A DNA stretch of 64,000 nt from Candidatus Nomurabacteria bacterium (GTDB lineage: Bacteria > Patescibacteriota > Minisyncoccia > Phycocordibacterales > UBA9973): NCBI GenBank assembly GCA_026395955.1, contig JAPLXR010000006.1:87259-151258 (forward strand), in the 5' to 3' direction. Made by a program: the position numbers and the translations under genes. Below are positions 4,702 to 49,588 of this stretch, piece after piece. Position 1 is the first letter of the stretch; every line of letters begins with the position of its first letter. Below the pieces are notes generated by a model, which was given only the letters and a program-made list of their open reading frames with translations, searched no databases and was not told the DNA's origin.

Positions 4702-5097
4702 ATGAAAACATATGAATCATATCAGGCATTATTGAAGCCATCTTGGGCGCCGCCGTCATATCTCTTTGGTCCGGTTTGGACTTTTATTTATATTTTAATT
4801 TTCATTTCTTTTGGAAAAGTTTTTATGATGACTTATGAGAAAACTATTCCATTCATTGTCGCACTACCATTTATTTTAAATTTAATTTTTAATATTCTCT
4901 ACACTCCAATTATGTTTGGTTTGAAGAATAATACTCTCGCATCTATCGATATCTTACTTGTCCTTGGCACTATCATCTGGATGATGATTGCAATTTTCCC
5001 ACACATGCGATGGATTACTTATATTCAAATCCCATATCTTCTCTGGGTTTCTTTTGCTACAGTTTTACAATTAACAATTTATTTTTTGAATAAATAA
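4702..5097 (+). CDS. tspO: TspO/MBR family tryptophan-rich membrane protein
   Basis: KPSWAPPSYLFGPVWTFIY signature and a multi-helix hydrophobic profile; somewhat short at 131 aa. Confidence 0.65.
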   Translation: MKTYESYQALLKPSWAPPSYLFGPVWTFIYILIFISFGKVFMMTYEKTIPFIVALPFILNLIFNILYTPIMFGLKNNTLASIDILLVLGTIIWMMIAIFPHMRWITYIQIPYLLWVSFATVLQLTIYFLNK

Positions 5098-23327: not shown

Positions 23328-23852
23328 ATGAAATTAATTGTAGGTTTAGGAAATCCAGGTGAACAATATGAAAATACTCGTCATAATACGGGTCGTATTA
23401 TCATTGGAATGATAGAAGATAAAATAAATACAAAAGTAAAATTTTTAATGCCAGATAGTTTTATGAATAATTCTGGAAAAGTTGTGGCACCACTTATTAA
23501 ATCAAAAAAAGATTTGAGTGACTTAGTTGTTATATATGATGATGTTGATTTACCTCTTGGAAAAATTAAGATTTCTTTTAATAGATCTTCTGGTGGTCAT
23601 AATGGTGTTGGATCAATAATAAAGCATTTAAAGACTGAAGAATTTTTACGTATTCGTGTGGGGATTTGTCCTACAACTCCAACAGGGAAATTAAAGAAAC
23701 CAAAAGGGGAAGAAGCAGTGTTGAAATTCTTGCTTGGTGATTTTAAAAAAGAAGAGATAGCTATACTTAAAAAAGAAAGTAAAAAAATAGCTGAAGCAGT
23801 GGATACTATATATGATGGAGGTAAAGACAAGGCTATGAGTTTGTTTAATTAA
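23328..23852 (+). CDS. pth: peptidyl-tRNA hydrolase
   Basis: LIVGLGNPG...Y..TRHNTG N-terminal signature. Confidence 0.9.
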   Translation: MKLIVGLGNPGEQYENTRHNTGRIIIGMIEDKINTKVKFLMPDSFMNNSGKVVAPLIKSKKDLSDLVVIYDDVDLPLGKIKISFNRSSGGHNGVGSIIKHLKTEEFLRIRVGICPTTPTGKLKKPKGEEAVLKFLLGDFKKEEIAILKKESKKIAEAVDTIYDGGKDKAMSLFN

Positions 23853-24290: not shown

Positions 24291-25394
24291 TTATTTCTTA
24301 TCTTCTAGATGAGTCAAAGTCATTTTGTGTTCCTTTGGTTCGAATAGAGTTATTTGGAAACTGTAAGTTTTACCAAGTTCCAATGATTCACGAAGTTTAG
24401 CTTCTGAACCAAATGTAGAATTGTGAACTAATCCAGCAACACCTTCTTTGATTGAAACTAATGCACCGTGTTTGTTGTATTTGATAACGACACCTTTGAT
24501 GATGTCACCCTTCTTTAGTTTACCTTCGTATTCTTTCCAAGGATTTTCCTTTAAAGCTTTTATTGAAAGAGAAATTTTACCTTCTTTTATTTCAATAATT
24601 TTAGCTTTGATCTTATCACCAACCTTAAACATTGTACGAGGATCTTCTACGAGGCCCCAGTCGAGTTCAGAGATGTGAACTAATCCTTCTAGACCTTCTT
24701 CTAGTTTGAGGAAAACTCCGAAATCTACAAGTCCTGCAATAGTACAAGATACTTCTTCTCCTAATGCATATTTACTAACGATTTCTTGTTTTTCTTCTGG
24801 ATTGTTATCTTTTTCAGAGAAGATAAGTTTACCTTCTTTTGGTAATGTTGAAATCATCATTACAGATAATTTTGTTCCAACTAATTTCTTTAATTCTTTT
24901 AAGATTTTATCTTTATCAGAATCTTCTACACGAGGATAGTGTTCAGCTTTTAATTGTGAAGCTGGTAAGAATCCTTGGATACCTTGCCATTCCAAAATAA
25001 GTCCTCCTTTGTTTGCATCTTTAACTTCGAGGTCCATGATGACTTTACTCTTGATAGCTTTTTCAGCATCACTCCAGATTAGAGCTTGCTTTGCTTCTTT
25101 GAGTGAAAGTTCTACATAGCCATCTTCGTTTTCTACTTCAACGATTTTTGCTTTGATGATATCACCGAGAGCAATTTTTTTGATTATGTCTTTTGCATTC
25201 ATGAACTCACGTCCGTAAATGATACCTGTACCGAAAGGCGCGAGGTCGACATAAACTGAAGATTTTTGAACCAAGATAACTGGTCCTTCTACTAATGAAT
25301 CAACTTCTGGATGATTTAGACTTTTGTCTAACATTATCTTTAAAGGTGAATCTACTTCGACTGTTACTTCTTCTTTTACTGCTGTTTTTTTCAT
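24291..25394 (-). CDS. rpsA: 30S ribosomal protein S1 (short, 4 S1 domains)
   Basis: Four repeated S1 RNA-binding domains (G-x-V-x-G-V/I-V...FGVFV pattern). 367 aa. Confidence 0.85.
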   Translation of the reverse strand: MKKTAVKEEVTVEVDSPLKIMLDKSLNHPEVDSLVEGPVILVQKSSVYVDLAPFGTGIIYGREFMNAKDIIKKIALGDIIKAKIVEVENEDGYVELSLKEAKQALIWSDAEKAIKSKVIMDLEVKDANKGGLILEWQGIQGFLPASQLKAEHYPRVEDSDKDKILKELKKLVGTKLSVMMISTLPKEGKLIFSEKDNNPEEKQEIVSKYALGEEVSCTIAGLVDFGVFLKLEEGLEGLVHISELDWGLVEDPRTMFKVGDKIKAKIIEIKEGKISLSIKALKENPWKEYEGKLKKGDIIKGVVIKYNKHGALVSIKEGVAGLVHNSTFGSEAKLRESLELGKTYSFQITLFEPKEHKMTLTHLEDKK

Positions 25395-25540
25395 ATATAT
25401 AATTAAAAAAGTCCGCTAAAAAGCGGATATTAAAATTTAGGCGTCCTTGGGTATTCCCTCGGGTGTTAACCTAAAAGTGCTTTTAATATCTAGATACTAC
25501 TATATAAGAGGAGAAAATGCAACCCATAAATTCAAACTCG

Positions 25541-25587
25541 CCCCACCCCTAACCCCTCCCCAAAATTTGAAGATTTTAGAGAGGGGG
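25541..25587. repeat. GC-rich hairpin repeat, copy A (CCCCACCCC-TAA-CCCCTCCCC-aaaatttgaagatttta-GAGAGGGGG)
   Basis: Related to copies at 26544-26721 and 37620-37659 (inverted orientation); GC-rich island in an AT-rich intergenic region. Confidence 0.7.
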
Positions 25588-25689
25588 AAATATTGATATT
25601 ATTAACTTAATGTGGTAGTTTTTAGTTAGAAAAACTATAGTTCGGTTGAATTCTAATAAGTATTAATTCACCTTTTAAATATTGAACAA

Positions 25690-26151
25690 ATGAGAAAAAA
25701 CTTGTCCTACAAAAAATTACCACAATGGATTGTGGATATTTTAGAAATTGTAAAAAAATTAGAAAAAATAAAAGCTGAAGAGCTTATGATTATGTATCAT
25801 GAAATGGATCCTGAAATTTATAAATTGATTAAAGATGAAATTTCAAAATTTTCAGAAGAAGAAATAAAATTTTATGTTAAAACAATTAAAGAATTCAATT
25901 TTCGTGATAAAAAGTATTACAAAGATGTAAAAATAGAAAGTAAAAGTGACTGGTATGATTACATGGATGAAAGATGCAGATTTGTTAATCGTTTGCTTAC
26001 TGTTATCAATGTTACTTTTAATTCAAACAGGAAATCAAGTGAGCTTGAACGACAAGTTAGTCCTCCTTCAGGAGTTTATGAAAAAAAAGATATTCACAAT
26101 AAAACAGATATCAAGCCTTCTGTTAAGGCATTTGGTACTCTTTTTGAGTAA
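25690..26151 (+). CDS. hypothetical protein (153 aa) in a repeat-flanked cassette
   Basis: ORF only; K/E-rich. Confidence 0.35.
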   Translation: MRKNLSYKKLPQWIVDILEIVKKLEKIKAEELMIMYHEMDPEIYKLIKDEISKFSEEEIKFYVKTIKEFNFRDKKYYKDVKIESKSDWYDYMDERCRFVNRLLTVINVTFNSNRKSSELERQVSPPSGVYEKKDIHNKTDIKPSVKAFGTLFE

Positions 26152-26155
26152 ATTC

Positions 26156-26521
26156 TTAATTATTGATCACCACAACAGATTGTATATTTGTTGTGGTGAT
26201 TTTTATTTTATCTAAAACTTTTTTTAAATCCGTCTCTATTTCAGAATTCCAAAATCTCAAGACTTTTATATTTTTAGAATTTAAATATTCTGTTCGCATT
26301 TTATCGTATTCTTTGTTTTCTTTATGAATTTCACCATCAAGCTCAATTGCGAGTTTTATTTTTGGTACATAAAAATCTATGATGAATCTATCTATTGGGT
26401 GCTGACGGCGGAACTTTATACCGAGTTTGTTATTTCTAATTTCCTCCCAAAGTATTTTCTCTGCTTTGGTTTCTTCTTTGCGCAAATAACGAGCTTTTGT
26501 CATTTCTTGTAGTTTTGACAT
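26156..26521 (-). CDS. DUF559 endonuclease-domain protein (Vsr/PD-(D/E)xK-like fold)
   Basis: ARxLRxxxTxAExxLWxxIR...GxKFRRQHPIxRFIxDFYxPxxKLAIELDGxxH...VLRFWNSE pattern typical of PF04480. Confidence 0.7.
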   Translation of the reverse strand: MSKLQEMTKARYLRKEETKAEKILWEEIRNNKLGIKFRRQHPIDRFIIDFYVPKIKLAIELDGEIHKENKEYDKMRTEYLNSKNIKVLRFWNSEIETDLKKVLDKIKITTTNIQSVVVINN

Positions 26522-26543
26522 ATTTTAATTTTAGCATTTTGTT

Positions 26544-26721
26544 CCCCCTCTCTAAAATCTTATTTTGGAGAGGGGGCTAGGGGGTGAGGGGAATTCCTAG
26601 AATTAATTCAACCCGCCTCATCCCGACCTAAAGGCTACCCTTCTCCAAAACTTGAAGGTTTTAGAGAAGGGAGAAATGCTTTTGAATTTTCCCCTCTCTA
26701 TTTTTCTAAAATGGGGAGGGG
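26544..26721. repeat. composite of three or more GC-rich hairpin repeat copies. B: CCCCCTCTC-taaaatcttatttt-GGAGAGGGGG-CTA-GGGGGTGAGGGG (26544-26591). C: CCCTTCTCCAAAAC-ttgaag-GTTTTAGAGAAGGGA (26638-26672). D: CCCCTCTCTA-tttttctaaaa-TGGGGAGGGG (26691-26721).
   Basis: Arms are reverse complements of copy A and near-identical to copy E; the ttgaag loop is shared between A and C. Confidence 0.7.
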
Positions 26722-27389
26722 CGGGTTTGGTATTGTTTATATATTTTGCTATAATTATACTTATGATAATCACATATTTCGGAAAACAATTTTTTAAGAT
26801 TCAGCAAGGGGAGATGACTGTCGCTTTTAACCCAATCAGTAAAGAATCAAAAGTATTCAATGGTGGAAAATTCGGCTCAGATATTGCACTCGTTACTACA
26901 AACCACAAAGACTATAACGGCCTCGGTCAGCTTTCTCATGGAGAGCGTGAACCTTTTGCTGTTACTGGTCCTGGAGACTATGAAGTTCGAGAAGTTTTTA
27001 TAAAAGGTCTGATGTCAGATGCGAATTTAGGTGATAAAAAATACATAAATACTATTTACTCTCTAGGTATTGATAATATAAATATTGCATTTCTCGGGGC
27101 ATTATCTGATGGAGATATTTCAAAAGAAGCTCGTGAAGCCATAAATGAACCAGATGTTCTTTTTATTCCCGTCGGAGGTAATGGTGTTATGGATGCTAAA
27201 ACTTCTGCGAAATTGGCTTCATCTCTCGAGCCGAAACTTATTATCCCTATGGATTATGATAAGGAAAGTTTAAAGCATTTTTTGAAAGAAATGGGTGCTG
27301 AAAATGCTGAAGTAGTAGACAAGCTTACTTTAAAGAGAAAAGATTTAGATGGAAAAGAGGGTGATGTAATAGTATTACAAACAATATAA
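26652..27389 (+). CDS. hypothetical protein, possibly a degenerate MBL-fold hydrolase; the 5' end overlaps the repeat cluster, so the true start is uncertain (in-frame Mets at 26652, 26676, 26763)
   Basis: ORF; the N-terminal 37 codons are translated from repeat DNA. Weak resemblance to beta-lactamase-fold hydrolases (LVTTNHKDYNG, FAVTGPGDYEV). Confidence 0.35.
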   Translation: MKVLEKGEMLLNFPLSIFLKWGGAGLVLFIYFAIIILMIITYFGKQFFKIQQGEMTVAFNPISKESKVFNGGKFGSDIALVTTNHKDYNGLGQLSHGEREPFAVTGPGDYEVREVFIKGLMSDANLGDKKYINTIYSLGIDNINIAFLGALSDGDISKEAREAINEPDVLFIPVGGNGVMDAKTSAKLASSLEPKLIIPMDYDKESLKHFLKEMGAENAEVVDKLTLKRKDLDGKEGDVIVLQTI

Positions 27390-27681: not shown

Positions 27682-30150
27682 ATGGCTAAAAAATTACCAC
27701 CAATTGAAACACCTGTGCGCACAAATATGGACGATGGAATTATTCCGATAAATATCGTTTCAGAAATGAAAGAATCATATCTCGCTTATGCGATGTCTGT
27801 TATTACTTCTCGTGCTCTTCCTGATGTGCGTGATGGATTGAAACCAGTTCATCGTCGTATTTTATTCGCGATGAATGAAATGGGGCTTACTTCTTCTTCA
27901 CGTTTTCGTAAATCAGCTGCAGTAGTCGGAGATGTACTTGGAAAATATCATCCACATGGCGATGCTTCTGTTTATGATGCTATGGTAAACATGGCCCAAG
28001 ACTTTTCTTATCGTTACCCTTTGATTATTGGTCAAGGAAACTTTGGTTCTATCGATGGAGATAATGCTGCTGCAATGCGTTATACCGAAGCTAAAATGGC
28101 AAAAGTTTCAAATGAATTACTTCGTGATTTAGAAAAAGAAACAGTTGATTTTAGATCAAACTATGACCAGACTCGAAAAGAGCCTGTAGTTTTTCCTTCT
28201 GCTGTACCTAGTCTTTTATTGAATGGAACTCTTGGTATTGCTGTTGGTATGGCGACAAATATTCCTTCACACAATCTCGCTGAAGTTGTAGATGCAACAG
28301 TACACCTCATAGATAACGAAGACGCAACTACAGAAGACCTGATGCAATTTGTTAAGGGTCCAGATTTTCCGACTGGTGGTCTCGTATATGGTCAAAAAGA
28401 CATGTTGCATGCCTATTCCACAGGACGTGGGGGTGTAGTAACTCGTGGTGAAGCTGAAATAGTTGAACAAAAAGGCGGACAATTCCAAATCATAATTACT
28501 TCTATTCCATTTCGTGTAAACAAGGCAAATTTGATAATGTCTATAGCTGAACTTGTACAAGAAAAAAAGATAGAAGGTATAAAAGGTCTTCGTGATGAAT
28601 CTACAAAAGATATTCGTATTGTTATAGATTTGAAAGCTGGAGCATATCCAGAAAAAGTATTGAATTATATTTACAAAAATACTCAGCTCGAACAAAATTT
28701 TAATTTCAACATGGTAGCCCTCGTAGATGGTGTACCACAAACCTTATCATTAAAATCAATTCTTTCAGAATTTATTGGCCACAGAAAAGAAGTGGTAAAA
28801 AGACGTTCACTTTATGAACTTCGTAAAGCAGAAGAACGTGAACATATTTTACTTGGTTTGAAAAAAGCTCTCGATTTTATTGATAAAGTTATCAAAACTA
28901 TTCGTGCATCAAAAGATGGAGCTACAGCAAAGCTCGCATTGATGAAAGAATTCAAATTCTCTGATCTTCAGGCTCAAGCTATTTTGGATATGAAATTGCA
29001 AAAGCTTGCAGGCCTCGAAAGAAAACTCATCGAAGAAGAACTGAAAGAGAAACAAGCTTTCATAAAAGCTATAAAAGAATTGCTCGCAAGTCCAAAGAAA
29101 ATGTTGAAAGTTGTTTCTGATGAACTCAAAGAAATTCGTGAGAAATATGCTGATGATCGTAGAACAAAAATAATAAAAGGTGGAGTGAAAGAAATTTCAG
29201 AAGATGATCTCGTTCCAGAAAAAGATACAATGCTCGTCTTTACTGCTGGCGGTTATGTAAAGCGTACTGACCCATCTGAATATCATTCACAAAAGCGTGG
29301 AGGTGTCGGTGTTGTAGACCTCGAAACAAAAGAAGAAGATTTCGTAACTATGCTTGTTTCGGGTTCTACACATAGTGATCTATTATTCTTCACAAATCTC
29401 GGAAAAGCATATCAAATAAAAATGTACGACATACCAGAAGGTCGCCGTGCTACAAAAGGAAAATCAATTATGAATTTCTTGTCTTTGGCAGGTGATGAAA
29501 AAGTAATGGCTATTTTACCAATGCCAAAAGAACTAAAGAAAAATCCTATTTCACTTATGCTTGTAACAAAAGTTGGTACTGCAAAGAAAATGGCTGGGGA
29601 AGCGTTCAAGGATGTTCGCCGTAGTGGACTTATTGCTATCAAACTCGACAAGGGCGATGAACTCGCTTCAGCACTTATTACAGAAAAGGGTGATGAAGTA
29701 ATGCTCGCAACTTCTGAAGGTCAATCAATCAGATTCAAAGAATCAGACATACGTGAAATGGGACGTACAGCAGGAGGTGTACGCGGAATGAAGCTCGATA
29801 AAGGGGATAGTATCATCGGTGTAGATGTTATAAAGAAAGAAAATAAAGACGGTTCATTCCTAGTAATGTCTGCAAATGGACTTGGCAAGAAAACATCACT
29901 CAAAGAATATAAAGTACAAAACCGTGGAGGATCTGGAATCAAAACTGCAAAAGTAACTCCAAAGACAGGTAAACTAATCGTTGCAAAAGTTATCACAGGT
30001 AATGAAGAAGAACTGATCGCTATGTCTAAAAAGGGACAAGTAATTCGTACAGCGCTAAAAGATATTCCATCTCTAGGCCGTCAAACACAAGGCGTAACAA
30101 TCATGCGTCTCCGTGCTGGAGATGGTATCGCATCTCTAACTTGTGCTTAA
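27682..30150 (+). CDS. gyrA: DNA gyrase subunit A
   Basis: [25 protein letters not shown] and [14 protein letters not shown] (QRDR region), a C-terminal beta-pinwheel, and a GyrA-box-like QNRGGSG. 822 aa. Confidence 0.9.
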
Positions 30151-37517: not shown

Positions 37518-37619
37518 TTTTTTTATGAATTAAATTGTTTTTAATTATTTTTTAAAATACATTTCTATACTTATAGTATATCATATGCAACATAAAAAGT
37601 CAAGCCATTTAAACCAAAA

Positions 37620-37670
37620 CCCCCTCTCCTTAATAAGGAGAGGGGGCAAGGGGGTGAGGTGGTTTTTTTA
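37620..37670. repeat. GC-rich hairpin repeat copy E (CCCCCTCTCC-ttaataa-GGAGAGGGGG-CAA-GGGGGTGAGG) followed by a T-run; doubles as a terminator for the minus-strand gene ending at 37668
   Basis: Perfect 10-bp stem; same arm and flank sequence as copy B; A/T runs on both sides. Confidence 0.7.
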
Positions 37671-38411: not shown

Positions 38412-38506
38412 ACTTATATACTAGCATATTACATCTTAAATGTCAAGCCCTATTTAGGTCTTGTTTTTTAAGGATTTAAGAAGTATAATAGGTATTCAAT
38501 AATATT

Positions 38507-38591
38507 GCCCGGATGGCGGAATTGGTATACGCGCACGACTTAAAATCGTGTCTCGCAAGGGATGTGGGTTCGACCCCCACTCCGGGCACCA
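38507..38591 (+). tRNA. tRNA-Leu (anticodon TAA), long variable arm, CCA encoded
   Basis: Cloverleaf read by eye: acceptor gcccgga/tccgggc, anticodon loop cttaaaa. Confidence 0.8.
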
Positions 38592-38605
38592 AAACTTAAT
38601 ATAAT

Positions 38606-38678
38606 GCGCCCATAGCTCAGCTGGTAGAGCAGATCCCTCTTAAGGATAAGGTCCAAGGTTCGATCCCTTGTGGGCGCA
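38606..38678 (+). tRNA. tRNA-Lys (anticodon CTT)
   Basis: gcgccca...agctcagctggtagagc...cctCTTaagg...ggttcgatcc...tgggcgc. Confidence 0.8.
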
Positions 38679-38703
38679 CAATAAATATAAAGTATATTTA
38701 GAT

Positions 38704-38760
38704 AACTGCTGGAGTGGCGGAATTGGTACATATAGTTAGTCTTTTGTACTAGTAACAAAG
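38704..38760 (+). repeat. decayed tandem copy (pseudo-tRNA) of the 5' half of tRNA-Leu(TAG): 25-nt exact direct repeat (38704-38728 = 38781-38805), degenerate anticodon arm, no T-arm
   Basis: aactgctggagtggcggaattggta appears twice. The first copy continues into ttagtcttttgtactag, resembling the anticodon arm ctagtcttaggaactag, then ends. Confidence 0.6.
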
Positions 38761-38784
38761 CAACAGTTTAAAAAGTTAAAAACT

Positions 38785-38866
38785 GCTGGAGTGGCGGAAT
38801 TGGTATACGCGCTAGTCTTAGGAACTAGTCCCGCAAGGGTTGAGGGTTCGAGTCCCTCCTCCAGCA
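38785..38866 (+). tRNA. tRNA-Leu (anticodon TAG), long variable arm
   Basis: gctggag acceptor, anticodon loop cttagga, T-arm ggttcgagtcc, 3' ctccagc-a. Confidence 0.8.
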
Positions 38867-38870
38867 CAGT

Positions 38871-49366: not shown

Positions 49367-49384
49367 TCCGGCTCGCCGGAAATT

Positions 49385-49477
49385 AGTGTTTTATAAAAGA
49401 ATAGTTTATAGTTTTACATACGCGATCGTAGCTCAACTCAAATTAGAATATAGTGAGCACTCGCCTAGGCGGACGAT
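49385..49477 (+). repeat. decayed tandem copy of the tRNA-Asp leader plus 5' half: 54-nt exact direct repeat (49385-49438 = 49478-49531), followed by a degenerate anticodon-arm-like palindrome; no T-arm
   Basis: agtgttttataaaagaatagtttatagttttacatacgcgatcgtagctcaact appears twice. The 91-aa track ORF over this region is just a translation of the repeat. Confidence 0.65.
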
Positions 49478-49514
49478 AGTGTTTTATAAAAGAATAGTTT
49501 ATAGTTTTACATAC

Positions 49515-49588
49515 GCGATCGTAGCTCAACTGGTTAGAGCACCCGCCTGTCACGCGGGAGGTTGCCGGTTCAAATCCGGTCGATCGCG
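49515..49588 (+). tRNA. tRNA-Asp (anticodon GTC)
   Basis: gcgatcg...agctcaactggttagagc...ctGTCac...ggttcaaatcc...cgatcgc-g. Confidence 0.75.

Follow-up and report, generated by a model that had tools for sequence, protein, structure and literature searches.

A DUF559 nuclease gene between palindromic repeat units in a Candidatus Nomurabacteria genome: one locus of a candidate small selfish module

The DUF559 family is very large, its members are annotated as 'endonuclease domain-containing', and there is no agreement on what they do, while BoxC-type palindromes are, to our knowledge, a repeat family without a known origin. This report concerns a locus where a DUF559 gene lies between palindromic repeat units of a family that appears to include the BoxC repeat of Escherichia coli. 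The locus is part of a 64,000-nucleotide stretch (the window) of the Candidatus Nomurabacteria bacterium assembly GCA_026395955.1 (contig JAPLXR010000006.1, positions 87,259 to 151,258, forward strand). Among described systems, those formed by REP repeats and RAYT enzymes (REPtrons, REPINs) share with it a nuclease gene placed between inverted hairpin repeats, gene-less doublets and singlets of the repeat elsewhere, conserved hairpin imperfections and long vertical persistence at fixed loci. Homing endonucleases of the EDxHD type, such as I-Bth0305I (PDB 3R3P), share the catalytic fold and its conserved acidic and histidine residues (PMC3239194), and their genes likewise occupy one precise site in some genomes while others have a clean empty allele there. 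Insertion sequence (IS) elements and miniature inverted-repeat transposable elements (MITEs) also have terminal inverted repeats, an inward promoter in the repeat, an open reading frame (ORF) whose end falls within it, derivatives without a gene and nested insertions. Vsr endonucleases share the fold, and integron cassettes (an ORF with its attC) have imperfect palindromes with conserved unpaired positions beside small, unrelated, promoter-poor ORFs, with variable content between the hairpins that is matched here by a locus with the order DUF559-unit-ORF-unit (L017). The locus in the window is read here, with a probability of roughly 0.55, as one copy of a widespread small selfish module, homing- or REP/RAYT-like, whose nuclease acts on its palindromes.

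The pairing of gene and repeat is conserved across long evolutionary distances. When an alignment of DUF559 proteins was scanned against one genome per GTDB species, 80 loci were obtained, and in most of the 35 closest ones, all from Patescibacteria, a unit in '+' orientation lies 4-76 nt upstream of the DUF559 ATG and a unit in '-' orientation starts 0-27 nt past the stop codon or overlaps it. Within 700 nt of a DUF559 gene there were 1.3-1.7 units/kb, compared with 0.016-0.034 units/kb elsewhere, a difference of about 40-50-fold (36 related loci; three independent sets). The loci anchored on DUF559 gave 1.3 against 0.034 units/kb, and those fetched independently of DUF559, through a neighboring metallo-beta-lactamase (MBL)-fold gene, gave 1.5 against 0.026 units/kb. 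The initial annotation of this locus, which had proposed a small mobile cassette with a nuclease acting on its flanking hairpins, had named the absence of such an association elsewhere, and the presence of the same two genes in relatives without the repeats, as outcomes that would speak against it; the association was found, and no relative was seen to carry the two genes at this locus without repeats. A motif-agnostic comparison, in which the highest-scoring inverted repeat without gaps shared by the two flanks was set against 480 control placements, placed 59 of 79 DUF559 loci, from many phyla, above the 95th control percentile and 50 of them above the 99th; in distant lineages, DUF559 is flanked by C/G-rich palindromes of the lineage's own. 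The association thus appears to be regular and cross-phylum, and it is apparently undescribed, in that no paper linking DUF559 or ycjD with BoxC or any repeat family was found in a literature search that had most subscription journals outside its reach. The 'DUF559 domain-containing protein' annotation is 14-fold enriched among predicted targets of programmed inversion (PMC9881135), which is what flanking inverted repeats would produce.

A unit measures about 45-60 nt and consists of a C-rich outer arm (CCTCACCCC or GCCCCACCCC), a linker of 2-5 nt and an imperfect hairpin (CCCCTCTCC-loop-GGAGAGGGG). The stem arms co-vary, with 33 compensated substitutions against 5.8 expected and a maximum of 14 in 500 shuffles, and non-Watson-Crick pairs recur at two stem positions (T.C at position 7, C.A at position 9). 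The two ends of a module differ in L010, L012, L018, L021, L022, L025 and L028, where the upstream unit reads CCAGAGTACTGGCGAGGGG, with the T.C mismatch, and the downstream unit CCGGAGTACCAGAGAGGGG, with the C.A mismatch; in some modules the upstream-type unit is found at both ends. Downstream units are followed by GGGGTGAGG and not by a T-run. Variants with a long linker, TGGATGCGAAGCAGAC or GCCGAAGGC, between the hairpin and the outer arm were observed in L004 (~4950-4985), L007, L008, L014, L017 (5335-5385), L027, L034, L130, L146 and L154 (3927-3967). Both linkers hold, on the G-rich strand, a mini-hairpin with a C-GAA-G triloop, an unusually stable DNA hairpin motif. In the DUF559 homologues P0101, P0002, P0017 and P0037, N- or C-terminal extensions in the annotation, such as PSPPTPSPSLLGEGE or SPLSSKVGEGLG, are translated flanking units.

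A hidden Markov model (HMM) built from more than 100 related units recovered exactly five units in the window, here called A to E, four of them at the DUF559 locus (Table 1), and a regular expression for the whole unit had no match in five shuffled windows. Units A and B share a 20-nt perfect inverted match and the same arm asymmetry, which makes them true inverted repeats and not merely two palindromes. Seen in the orientation of the DUF559 gene, B lies upstream and A downstream, with a hypothetical 153-aa ORF (hyp153) between the DUF559 stop codon and A. In the window, B and DUF559 form the module (26156-26592), A is its distal end, C and D are a gene-less derivative, and E is an orphan. Several elements of the initial annotation were recovered unchanged, namely the positions of both ORFs, the assignment of the second of these to DUF559, the bracketing of the pair by A on one side and B-D on the other, and the housekeeping surroundings (pth, rpsA, gyrA), to which the MBL-fold gene between DUF559 and gyrA can be added. 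Folding of single-stranded DNA gave z values of -3.6 to -5.1 for B, C, D and E (E = -5.1) and of only -1.7 for A. By promoter scan, unit A holds an inward promoter-like element (TTTAGA-16-TATTAT) aimed at hyp153. A search of Rfam over 25300-26900 returned no family at E<=1, only chance miRNA and snoRNA matches. The units were rejected as canonical terminators, as they have no T-runs in the DUF559 direction and only the AT-rich hairpin of hyp153 qualifies.

Table 1. Positions of the features around the DUF559 gene, and of the orphan unit E, counted from the first nucleotide of the window.
Feature	Position	Strand	Remarks
pth	23328-23852	+	
rpsA (ribosomal protein S1, four S1 domains)	24291-25394	-	Pfam S1 E=3.4e-38; left housekeeping anchor of the insertion site
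rpsA promoter-like element, TTGCAT ... TATAGTAGTA	25495-25522	-	'atactactata...aaaatgcaa' kept in all empty and occupied loci
Unit A	25539-25596	+	nhmmer E=1.2e-10; arm GCCCCACCCCTAA and imperfect hairpin CCCCTCCCCAAAAT..ATTTTAGAGAGGGG; distal inverted partner of B
hyp153 ORF, 153 aa	25690-26151	+	
DUF559 ORF, 121 aa	26156-26521	-	Convergent with hyp153
Intrinsic-terminator-like hairpin of hyp153	26165-26201	+	16-bp stem and T-run; z = -6.8; within the DUF559 ORF, in its atypical C-terminal tail
DUF559 promoter-like site	26528-26556	-	-35 TTTAGA inside unit B; extended -10 TGcTAAAAT ends 6 nt before the ATG
Unit B	26539-26592	-	nhmmer E=1.6e-9; canonical DUF559 upstream unit, CCTCACCCCCTAG and CCCCCTCTCC..GGAGAGGGGG
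Units C and D	26612-26726	C +, D -	C at 26612-26677, D at 26681-26726; gene-less inverted doublet resembling a MITE or REPIN
MBL-fold hydrolase gene	26727-27389	+	ATG at 26763; preceded by a promoter-like site of its own; outside the module, as right anchor of the insertion site
gyrA	27682-30150	+	
Orphan unit E	37618-37662	-	CCTCACCCCCTTG and CCCCCTCTCCTTATTAAGGAGAGGGGG; between two - strand genes, 11 kb off, no DUF559 nearby

Fixed intergenic sites either have or lack the module, which can be inverted, decays to fragments, solo units and doublets, and can hold variable cargo. DUF559 genes were found at the site between rpsA and the MBL gene (rpsA|MBL; the window and 11 species), at a site next to efp (12 species) and at least three further sites, and their orientation is opposite at rpsA|MBL in L020/L030 and at the efp site in L006/L015/L016. 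With the MBL gene as the only bait, 80 further metagenomic loci were retrieved, at 65-75% amino acid identity, the divergence range of the occupied genomes. Of about 55 of these with both anchors, about 40 are empty, with a rpsA|MBL spacer of 165-350 nt and neither DUF559 nor a unit; the empty site that the initial annotation had suggested looking for in relatives therefore exists. Altogether, the rpsA|MBL tally is 13 loci with intact DUF559 (the window included), 2 with DUF559 fragments, 3 with solo units and about 40 empty. On a neighbor-joining tree of rpsA and MBL, which has no support values, occupied loci are interspersed with empty ones. The fragments, of 41-52 aa, lie between units in L135 and L140, a single complete palindrome is left in L130 and L154, a gene-less pair is seen in L146, and a complete module is present in L115, a locus fetched through the MBL gene. 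In occupied relatives the units, or their outer arm, directly abut the -35 box of rpsA (TTGCAT). Relative to its sister L020, L030 has an extra 74-nt gene-less doublet inside the loop of its left unit, with flanks that align cleanly and without duplication, and comparable gene-less doublets occur in L146 and L147. The composition of the outer flanks at junctions showed only a preference for A at position -1.

The rpsA|MBL spacer is also a variable islet that contains unrelated accessory ORFs across L093-L163 (e.g., L134 1621-2382, L162 2619-3161 and L115 2863-3894), among them, by eye, pilin-like and pyridoxal phosphate (PLP)-enzyme-like ones. Genes resembling HUH/Y1 transposases (YHIxNRG...NHFHFIL) were observed in or near this spacer in L110 (3043-3675), L112 (2484-3122) and L126 (2532-3170), and one in L164 (9511-10185) belongs to PF01797; enzymes of the RAYT/IS200 type thus co-exist with DUF559 modules in this clade.

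A comparable arrangement is found in E. coli K-12, where the DUF559 protein YcjD is 41% identical to the protein in the window. The ycjD stop codon lies inside CCCTCTCCCTGAAAGAGCGAGGGGG, and CCCTCGCCCCTCTGGGGAGAGGGTTAGGGTGAGGGG follows about 170 nt downstream. The ycjD-adjacent unit, GGAGAGGGTTAGGGTGAGGGG, is nearly the same string as unit B in the window, GGAGAGGGGGCTAGGGGGTGAGGGG. Every one of the 5,426 complete E. coli genomes carries this 44-nt unit, with a median count of 19 places (the pstA-pstB spacer is one example), and, unlike the window units, the copies seen are compact full palindromes. The unit looks like BoxC, a GC-rich palindrome of roughly 50-56 nt with about 20-30 copies per genome that was first described beside envM (fabI); the likeness is drawn from copy number, size and this location rather than from a published consensus. 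The published listing for BoxC is 22-32 copies per E. coli genome (PMC2267715), and ycjD is known to replace the eefRABCD operon between fabI and sapF in E. coli phylogroups A, B1 and C (PMC12817139). On the - strand of the K-12 locus (L167, 5290-5370), about 60 nt past ycjD, a duplicated fragment of the ycjD 3' end (..METVLENI..) is followed by a BoxC-like unit, and this fragment looks like the remnant of a second or rearranged module. C/G-rich palindromic repeats also flank the DUF559 genes of Neisseria gonorrhoeae and of plasmid pAQ6 of Synechococcus PCC 7002. In the N. gonorrhoeae locus (L169, 240-330 and 850-950), the NGO0050-type gene, which encodes the protein of PDB 3HRL, lies between ~100-nt repeats that contain CTCTCCCtgtGGGAGAG and are direct, not inverted.

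The 121-aa protein in the window matches Pfam DUF559 (PF04480) at E=1.1e-34, with 119.1 bits against a cut-off of 20.6 and over 102 of 109 profile positions, and its sequence matches PDB 3HRL at E=1.6e-24. Its AlphaFold2 model has a predicted local distance difference test (pLDDT) score of 82.7, and Foldseek ranked 3HRL (N. gonorrhoeae NGO0050; TM-scores 0.71/0.90) nearest, followed by the catalytic domain of I-Bth0305I (3R3P; probability 1.0), PvuRts1I/AbaSI and then Vsr, with 1VSR and 1CW0 also matched. The protein is thus predicted to be a stand-alone PD-(D/E)xK nuclease of the Vsr/EDxHD fold. Residues E20, D48, E59, D61 and H65 are invariant in 35 DUF559 sequences, and D72 is found in at least 90% of these; together these residues fit those that define the EDxHD motif and, by our own sequence comparison, align to Vsr E25/D51/H69/D97 (residue roles from PMC3239194). 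Among syntenic orthologues, the ratio of nonsynonymous to synonymous substitution rates (dN/dS) is ~0.13, with dS saturated. An active enzyme is likely, judging from the invariant catalytic residues, this ratio and a homing endonuclease, I-Bth0305I, as the closest characterised fold. The layout of its promoter-like site, AAAATGCTATAAT-N7-9-ATG, recurs in relatives and suggests a leaderless-type mRNA. The C-terminal tail of the protein, TTTNIQSVVVINN, is not present in homologues, and its run through the hyp153 terminator suggests that a rearrangement removed the native 3' end of the gene.

Several narrower assignments for the protein were considered and rejected. As a Vsr endonuclease proper it scores 19.1 bits on TIGR00632, against a cut-off of 97.85, and no methyltransferase is adjacent (the neighbors are rpsA, hyp153 and the MBL hydrolase gene). 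The tryptophan of its RFWN motif aligns to the Vsr 'IVWE' and not to W68/W86, and thus gives no support for mismatch recognition through an intercalating Trp wedge. Its PADLOC matches, to the nuclease domains of a methyl-directed restriction endonuclease and of DpdF, are too weak for a defence system. A phage origin is not favored by 2 weak relatives in 2.9 million viral contigs and by PHROG matches that are of homing-endonuclease type, none of them close, and a plasmid vehicle is not favored by the presence of DUF559 in 34 of 72,556 plasmid records, mostly large replicons.

The second gene of the pair, hyp153, had no match in Pfam, NCBIfam, PADLOC or PHROG, and a single homologue (2 clusters) was found among 5.8 billion proteins. 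In L164, the closest relative (rpsA 97%, gyrA 93% and MBL 87% amino acid identity), that homologue is found at the same site, next to a near-identical unit A and without DUF559, B, C or D, from which the segment specific to the window can be placed at ~26152-26725. Between the two copies dN/dS is ~0.30, compared with 0.06 for rpsA and 0.09 for MBL; hyp153 is a real, fast-evolving ORFan. No hyp153 homologue was found at any other DUF559 locus, and a role as conserved DUF559 partner was therefore rejected, as was, with it, the earlier view of the two genes as one obligate cassette. The idea of a small mobile cassette is in this way upheld in part, by the empty sites and by the tie between repeats and DUF559, and not for hyp153, which is no constant part of the module and is better seen as a lineage-specific, interchangeable cargo or neighbor ORF. 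In several other loci the repeat pair encloses DUF559 together with one unrelated ORF, such as a 71-aa ORF in L004, a 118-aa ORF in L009, P-loop proteins in L011, L024 and L020/L030, and an ORF that by eye is cytidine deaminase-like in L023.

The genes from 23.3 to 30.2 kb are ordered pth (+), a 109-aa ORF (-), rpsA (-), hyp153 (+), DUF559 (-), the MBL-fold hydrolase gene, an 82-aa ORF and gyrA (+), and the same local order was reproduced in three independent Logan assemblies. In relatives, rpsA orthologues that are 82-97% identical adjoin the same site. The repeat cluster had been thought to supply the first codons of the gene that follows; the TTG-initiated ORF from 26652 is only mechanical, and the real start is the ATG at 26763, from which the gene caller gives 208 aa and at which 10 orthologues share the invariant N-terminus MIITYFG. 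By promoter scan, this gene has a promoter-like site of its own, TTGGTA-17-TATAAT at 26727-26755, 3' of unit D. The extended -10 boxes of DUF559 (26528-26533) and of the MBL gene (26750-26755) end 6-7 nt before the ATG, a layout repeated in relatives that suggests leaderless or near-leaderless mRNAs for both. Upstream of rpsA, every relative shares a conserved 5' leader (25405-25485, - strand, in the window) with the hairpin AAAATCCGC..GCGGAT followed by AAGGCTTAGGTT..GGTTACCCTAAATCC; Rfam gave no match to this leader, which is a candidate for S1 autoregulation. Elsewhere in the window, paralogous tRNA genes stand in tandem at 38501-38867 and 49369-49531, and a 70-nt direct repeat (91% identity) lies immediately 5' of tRNA-like sequence.

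How such a module might spread can be proposed by analogy. The DUF559 nuclease would recognise and cut the units, its substrate being either palindromic duplex or hairpins, extruded or single-stranded, that retain the conserved mismatches. This step is suggested by the fold of the nuclease, its conserved active site and the likeness to homing endonucleases and REP/RAYT. Host recombination or repair would then copy, delete or invert the module, and the outcome may be a homing-like gene conversion between unit-bearing sites, analogous to that of REP/RAYT. Since an inner hairpin reads almost the same as its reverse complement, the flanking units are inverted repeats of one another and, nearly, direct ones too; recombination between such a pair would be expected to yield inversions and solo complete palindromes, both of which were observed.

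The locus nevertheless differs from each of the systems to which it was likened above. RAYT enzymes belong to HUH/Y1 (PF01797), whereas the enzyme here has the Vsr-type PD-(D/E)xK fold and no Y1_Tnp match; REPs number in the hundreds per genome (>100), compared with ~0.02-0.03 orphan units/kb here and one of five units away from DUF559 in the 64 kb; the units start with CCTCAC and not with the GTAG/CGTC tags of the REP super-families (PMC3733652); and several DUF559 copies are possible per genome. Unlike EDxHD homing endonuclease genes, DUF559 is chromosomal and intergenic with no intron, intein or phage host, and it sits between inverted repeats at several sites per genome. Unlike IS elements and MITEs, the modules have no DDE, HUH, serine or tyrosine transposase, no target-site duplication and no near-identical multi-copy set within one genome. 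Association with repeats is not a feature of Vsr endonucleases, from which the low TIGR00632 score and the missing methyltransferase also separate the protein. Integron cassettes are a resemblance only, as no integrase or attI is present and the units are inverted instead of forming uniformly oriented arrays.

A number of observations weigh against a selfish module. DUF559 is the sole constant gene, with no recognised transposase or recombinase in the module, and we know of no precedent for a 110-aa PD-(D/E)xK core as the only enzyme of transposition. The protein is the nuclease core alone: no second Pfam domain was found, nor the NUMOD/helix-turn-helix (HTH) module that gives I-Bth0305I its specificity. 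No target-site duplication was seen by eye at any junction, the L030 insertion included, and that insertion is the only clear one found. Copies of DUF559 in the same genome are not each other's nearest relatives, such that recent intragenomic copying or concerted evolution was not seen, and the ~2-3 units per DUF559 gene, with a similar number of orphans, are far below the numbers of REP. The trees behind the analysis are neighbor-joining trees of short sequences, with no support values. Every E. coli genome has the unit, though many have no ycjD at the fabI locus (PMC12817139). Finally, synteny of DUF559 that persists at ~80% gyrA identity under purifying selection fits a host gene too.

Since target-site duplications, a known transposase and recent copies are all missing, and DUF559 is syntenic and under strong purifying selection, a domesticated or host function remains a serious rival, although we consider it unlikely. 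DUF559 would then be a resident gene, for example a nuclease of repair or restriction type, the palindromes would be co-evolving cis-regulatory or structural elements (promoter or operator upstream, terminator or insulator downstream), and the patchy distribution would reflect repeated loss and homologous replacement, with orphan units as relics. The synteny at three or more sites, the dN/dS of ~0.13 and the unrelatedness of same-genome copies all agree with this. So do the -35 box of the DUF559 promoter-like site within unit B and the same site facing hyp153 in A, and the proposed role of VsrA, a DUF559 protein of Caulobacter, is the repair of T:G mismatches at methylated motifs by the very-short-patch route (PMC12907096). 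Yet no cytosine methyltransferase is adjacent in the window, the lack of T-runs after downstream units is at odds with canonical terminators, and a non-coding motif of ~40 nt kept from Patescibacteria to E. coli would be unusual for an operator. Gene-less doublets and solo units far from any DUF559 (one of them inside another unit), clean empty sites without a relic and cargo ORFs inside the repeat pair are likewise hard to reconcile with a resident gene and its regulatory elements.

The units could instead belong to an independent REP/MITE-like family moved by another enzyme or by recombination, with an unrelated nuclease gene that attracts them, its ends offering a preferred hairpin target, or that was captured between them. 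About half of the units in the MBL-anchored set are orphans, the L030 doublet shows insertion of unit into unit, E. coli genomes carry the unit with or without ycjD at the fabI locus, and HUH/Y1-transposase-like genes occur in these genomes, even at rpsA|MBL (L110, L112, L126); REPs are known targets of IS elements (PMC1525189). We nonetheless regard this as improbable, given that the pairing is more regular than hitch-hiking would produce (its polarity and the distance to the ATG are fixed, and the stop codon lies inside the hairpin), is repeated across phyla with lineage-specific unit variants that track DUF559 lineages, and is mirrored by empty sites that lack gene and units alike. Least probable is that the units act as RNA and not as DNA ends, be it as a structured RNA, a stabiliser or a guide or antisense partner of the nuclease. 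The co-variation of the stems would suit such a role, as would GCCTTCGGC in some long-linker variants, which as RNA would fold into a C(UUCG)G tetraloop, but Rfam has no match, the units stand in both orientations relative to neighboring genes, and the predicted promoter between the upstream unit and the ATG would leave that unit outside the DUF559 mRNA.

The selfish module thus remains the favored reading of the locus. An extension of it, held more tentatively than the module itself, is that stand-alone DUF559 nucleases, YcjD and NGO0050 included, may be the cognate enzymes of BoxC-type palindromes and, as such, a new prokaryotic class of mobile or selfish element, cargo-capable and present in many phyla, that would depend on a PD-(D/E)xK nuclease of hairpins or palindromes and on host repair. 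In annotation, 'PSPL...GEG' extensions at the N- or C-terminus of DUF559 proteins, and ORFs such as 26652-27389, are artefacts of reading through the repeats, and the extensions can serve as marks of the association. The pairing across phyla would give both DUF559 and the BoxC-type palindromes a functional context, as the discovery of RAYT did for REPs. If the selfish reading is true, such a module would rest on a nuclease fold that had not been linked to the dispersal of repeats before, and if DUF559 nucleases are the cognate enzymes, this would explain the origin of BoxC-type repeats, unexplained since the 1990s. Because E. coli K-12 has the pairing at ycjD, a model organism is at hand for direct tests of the idea.

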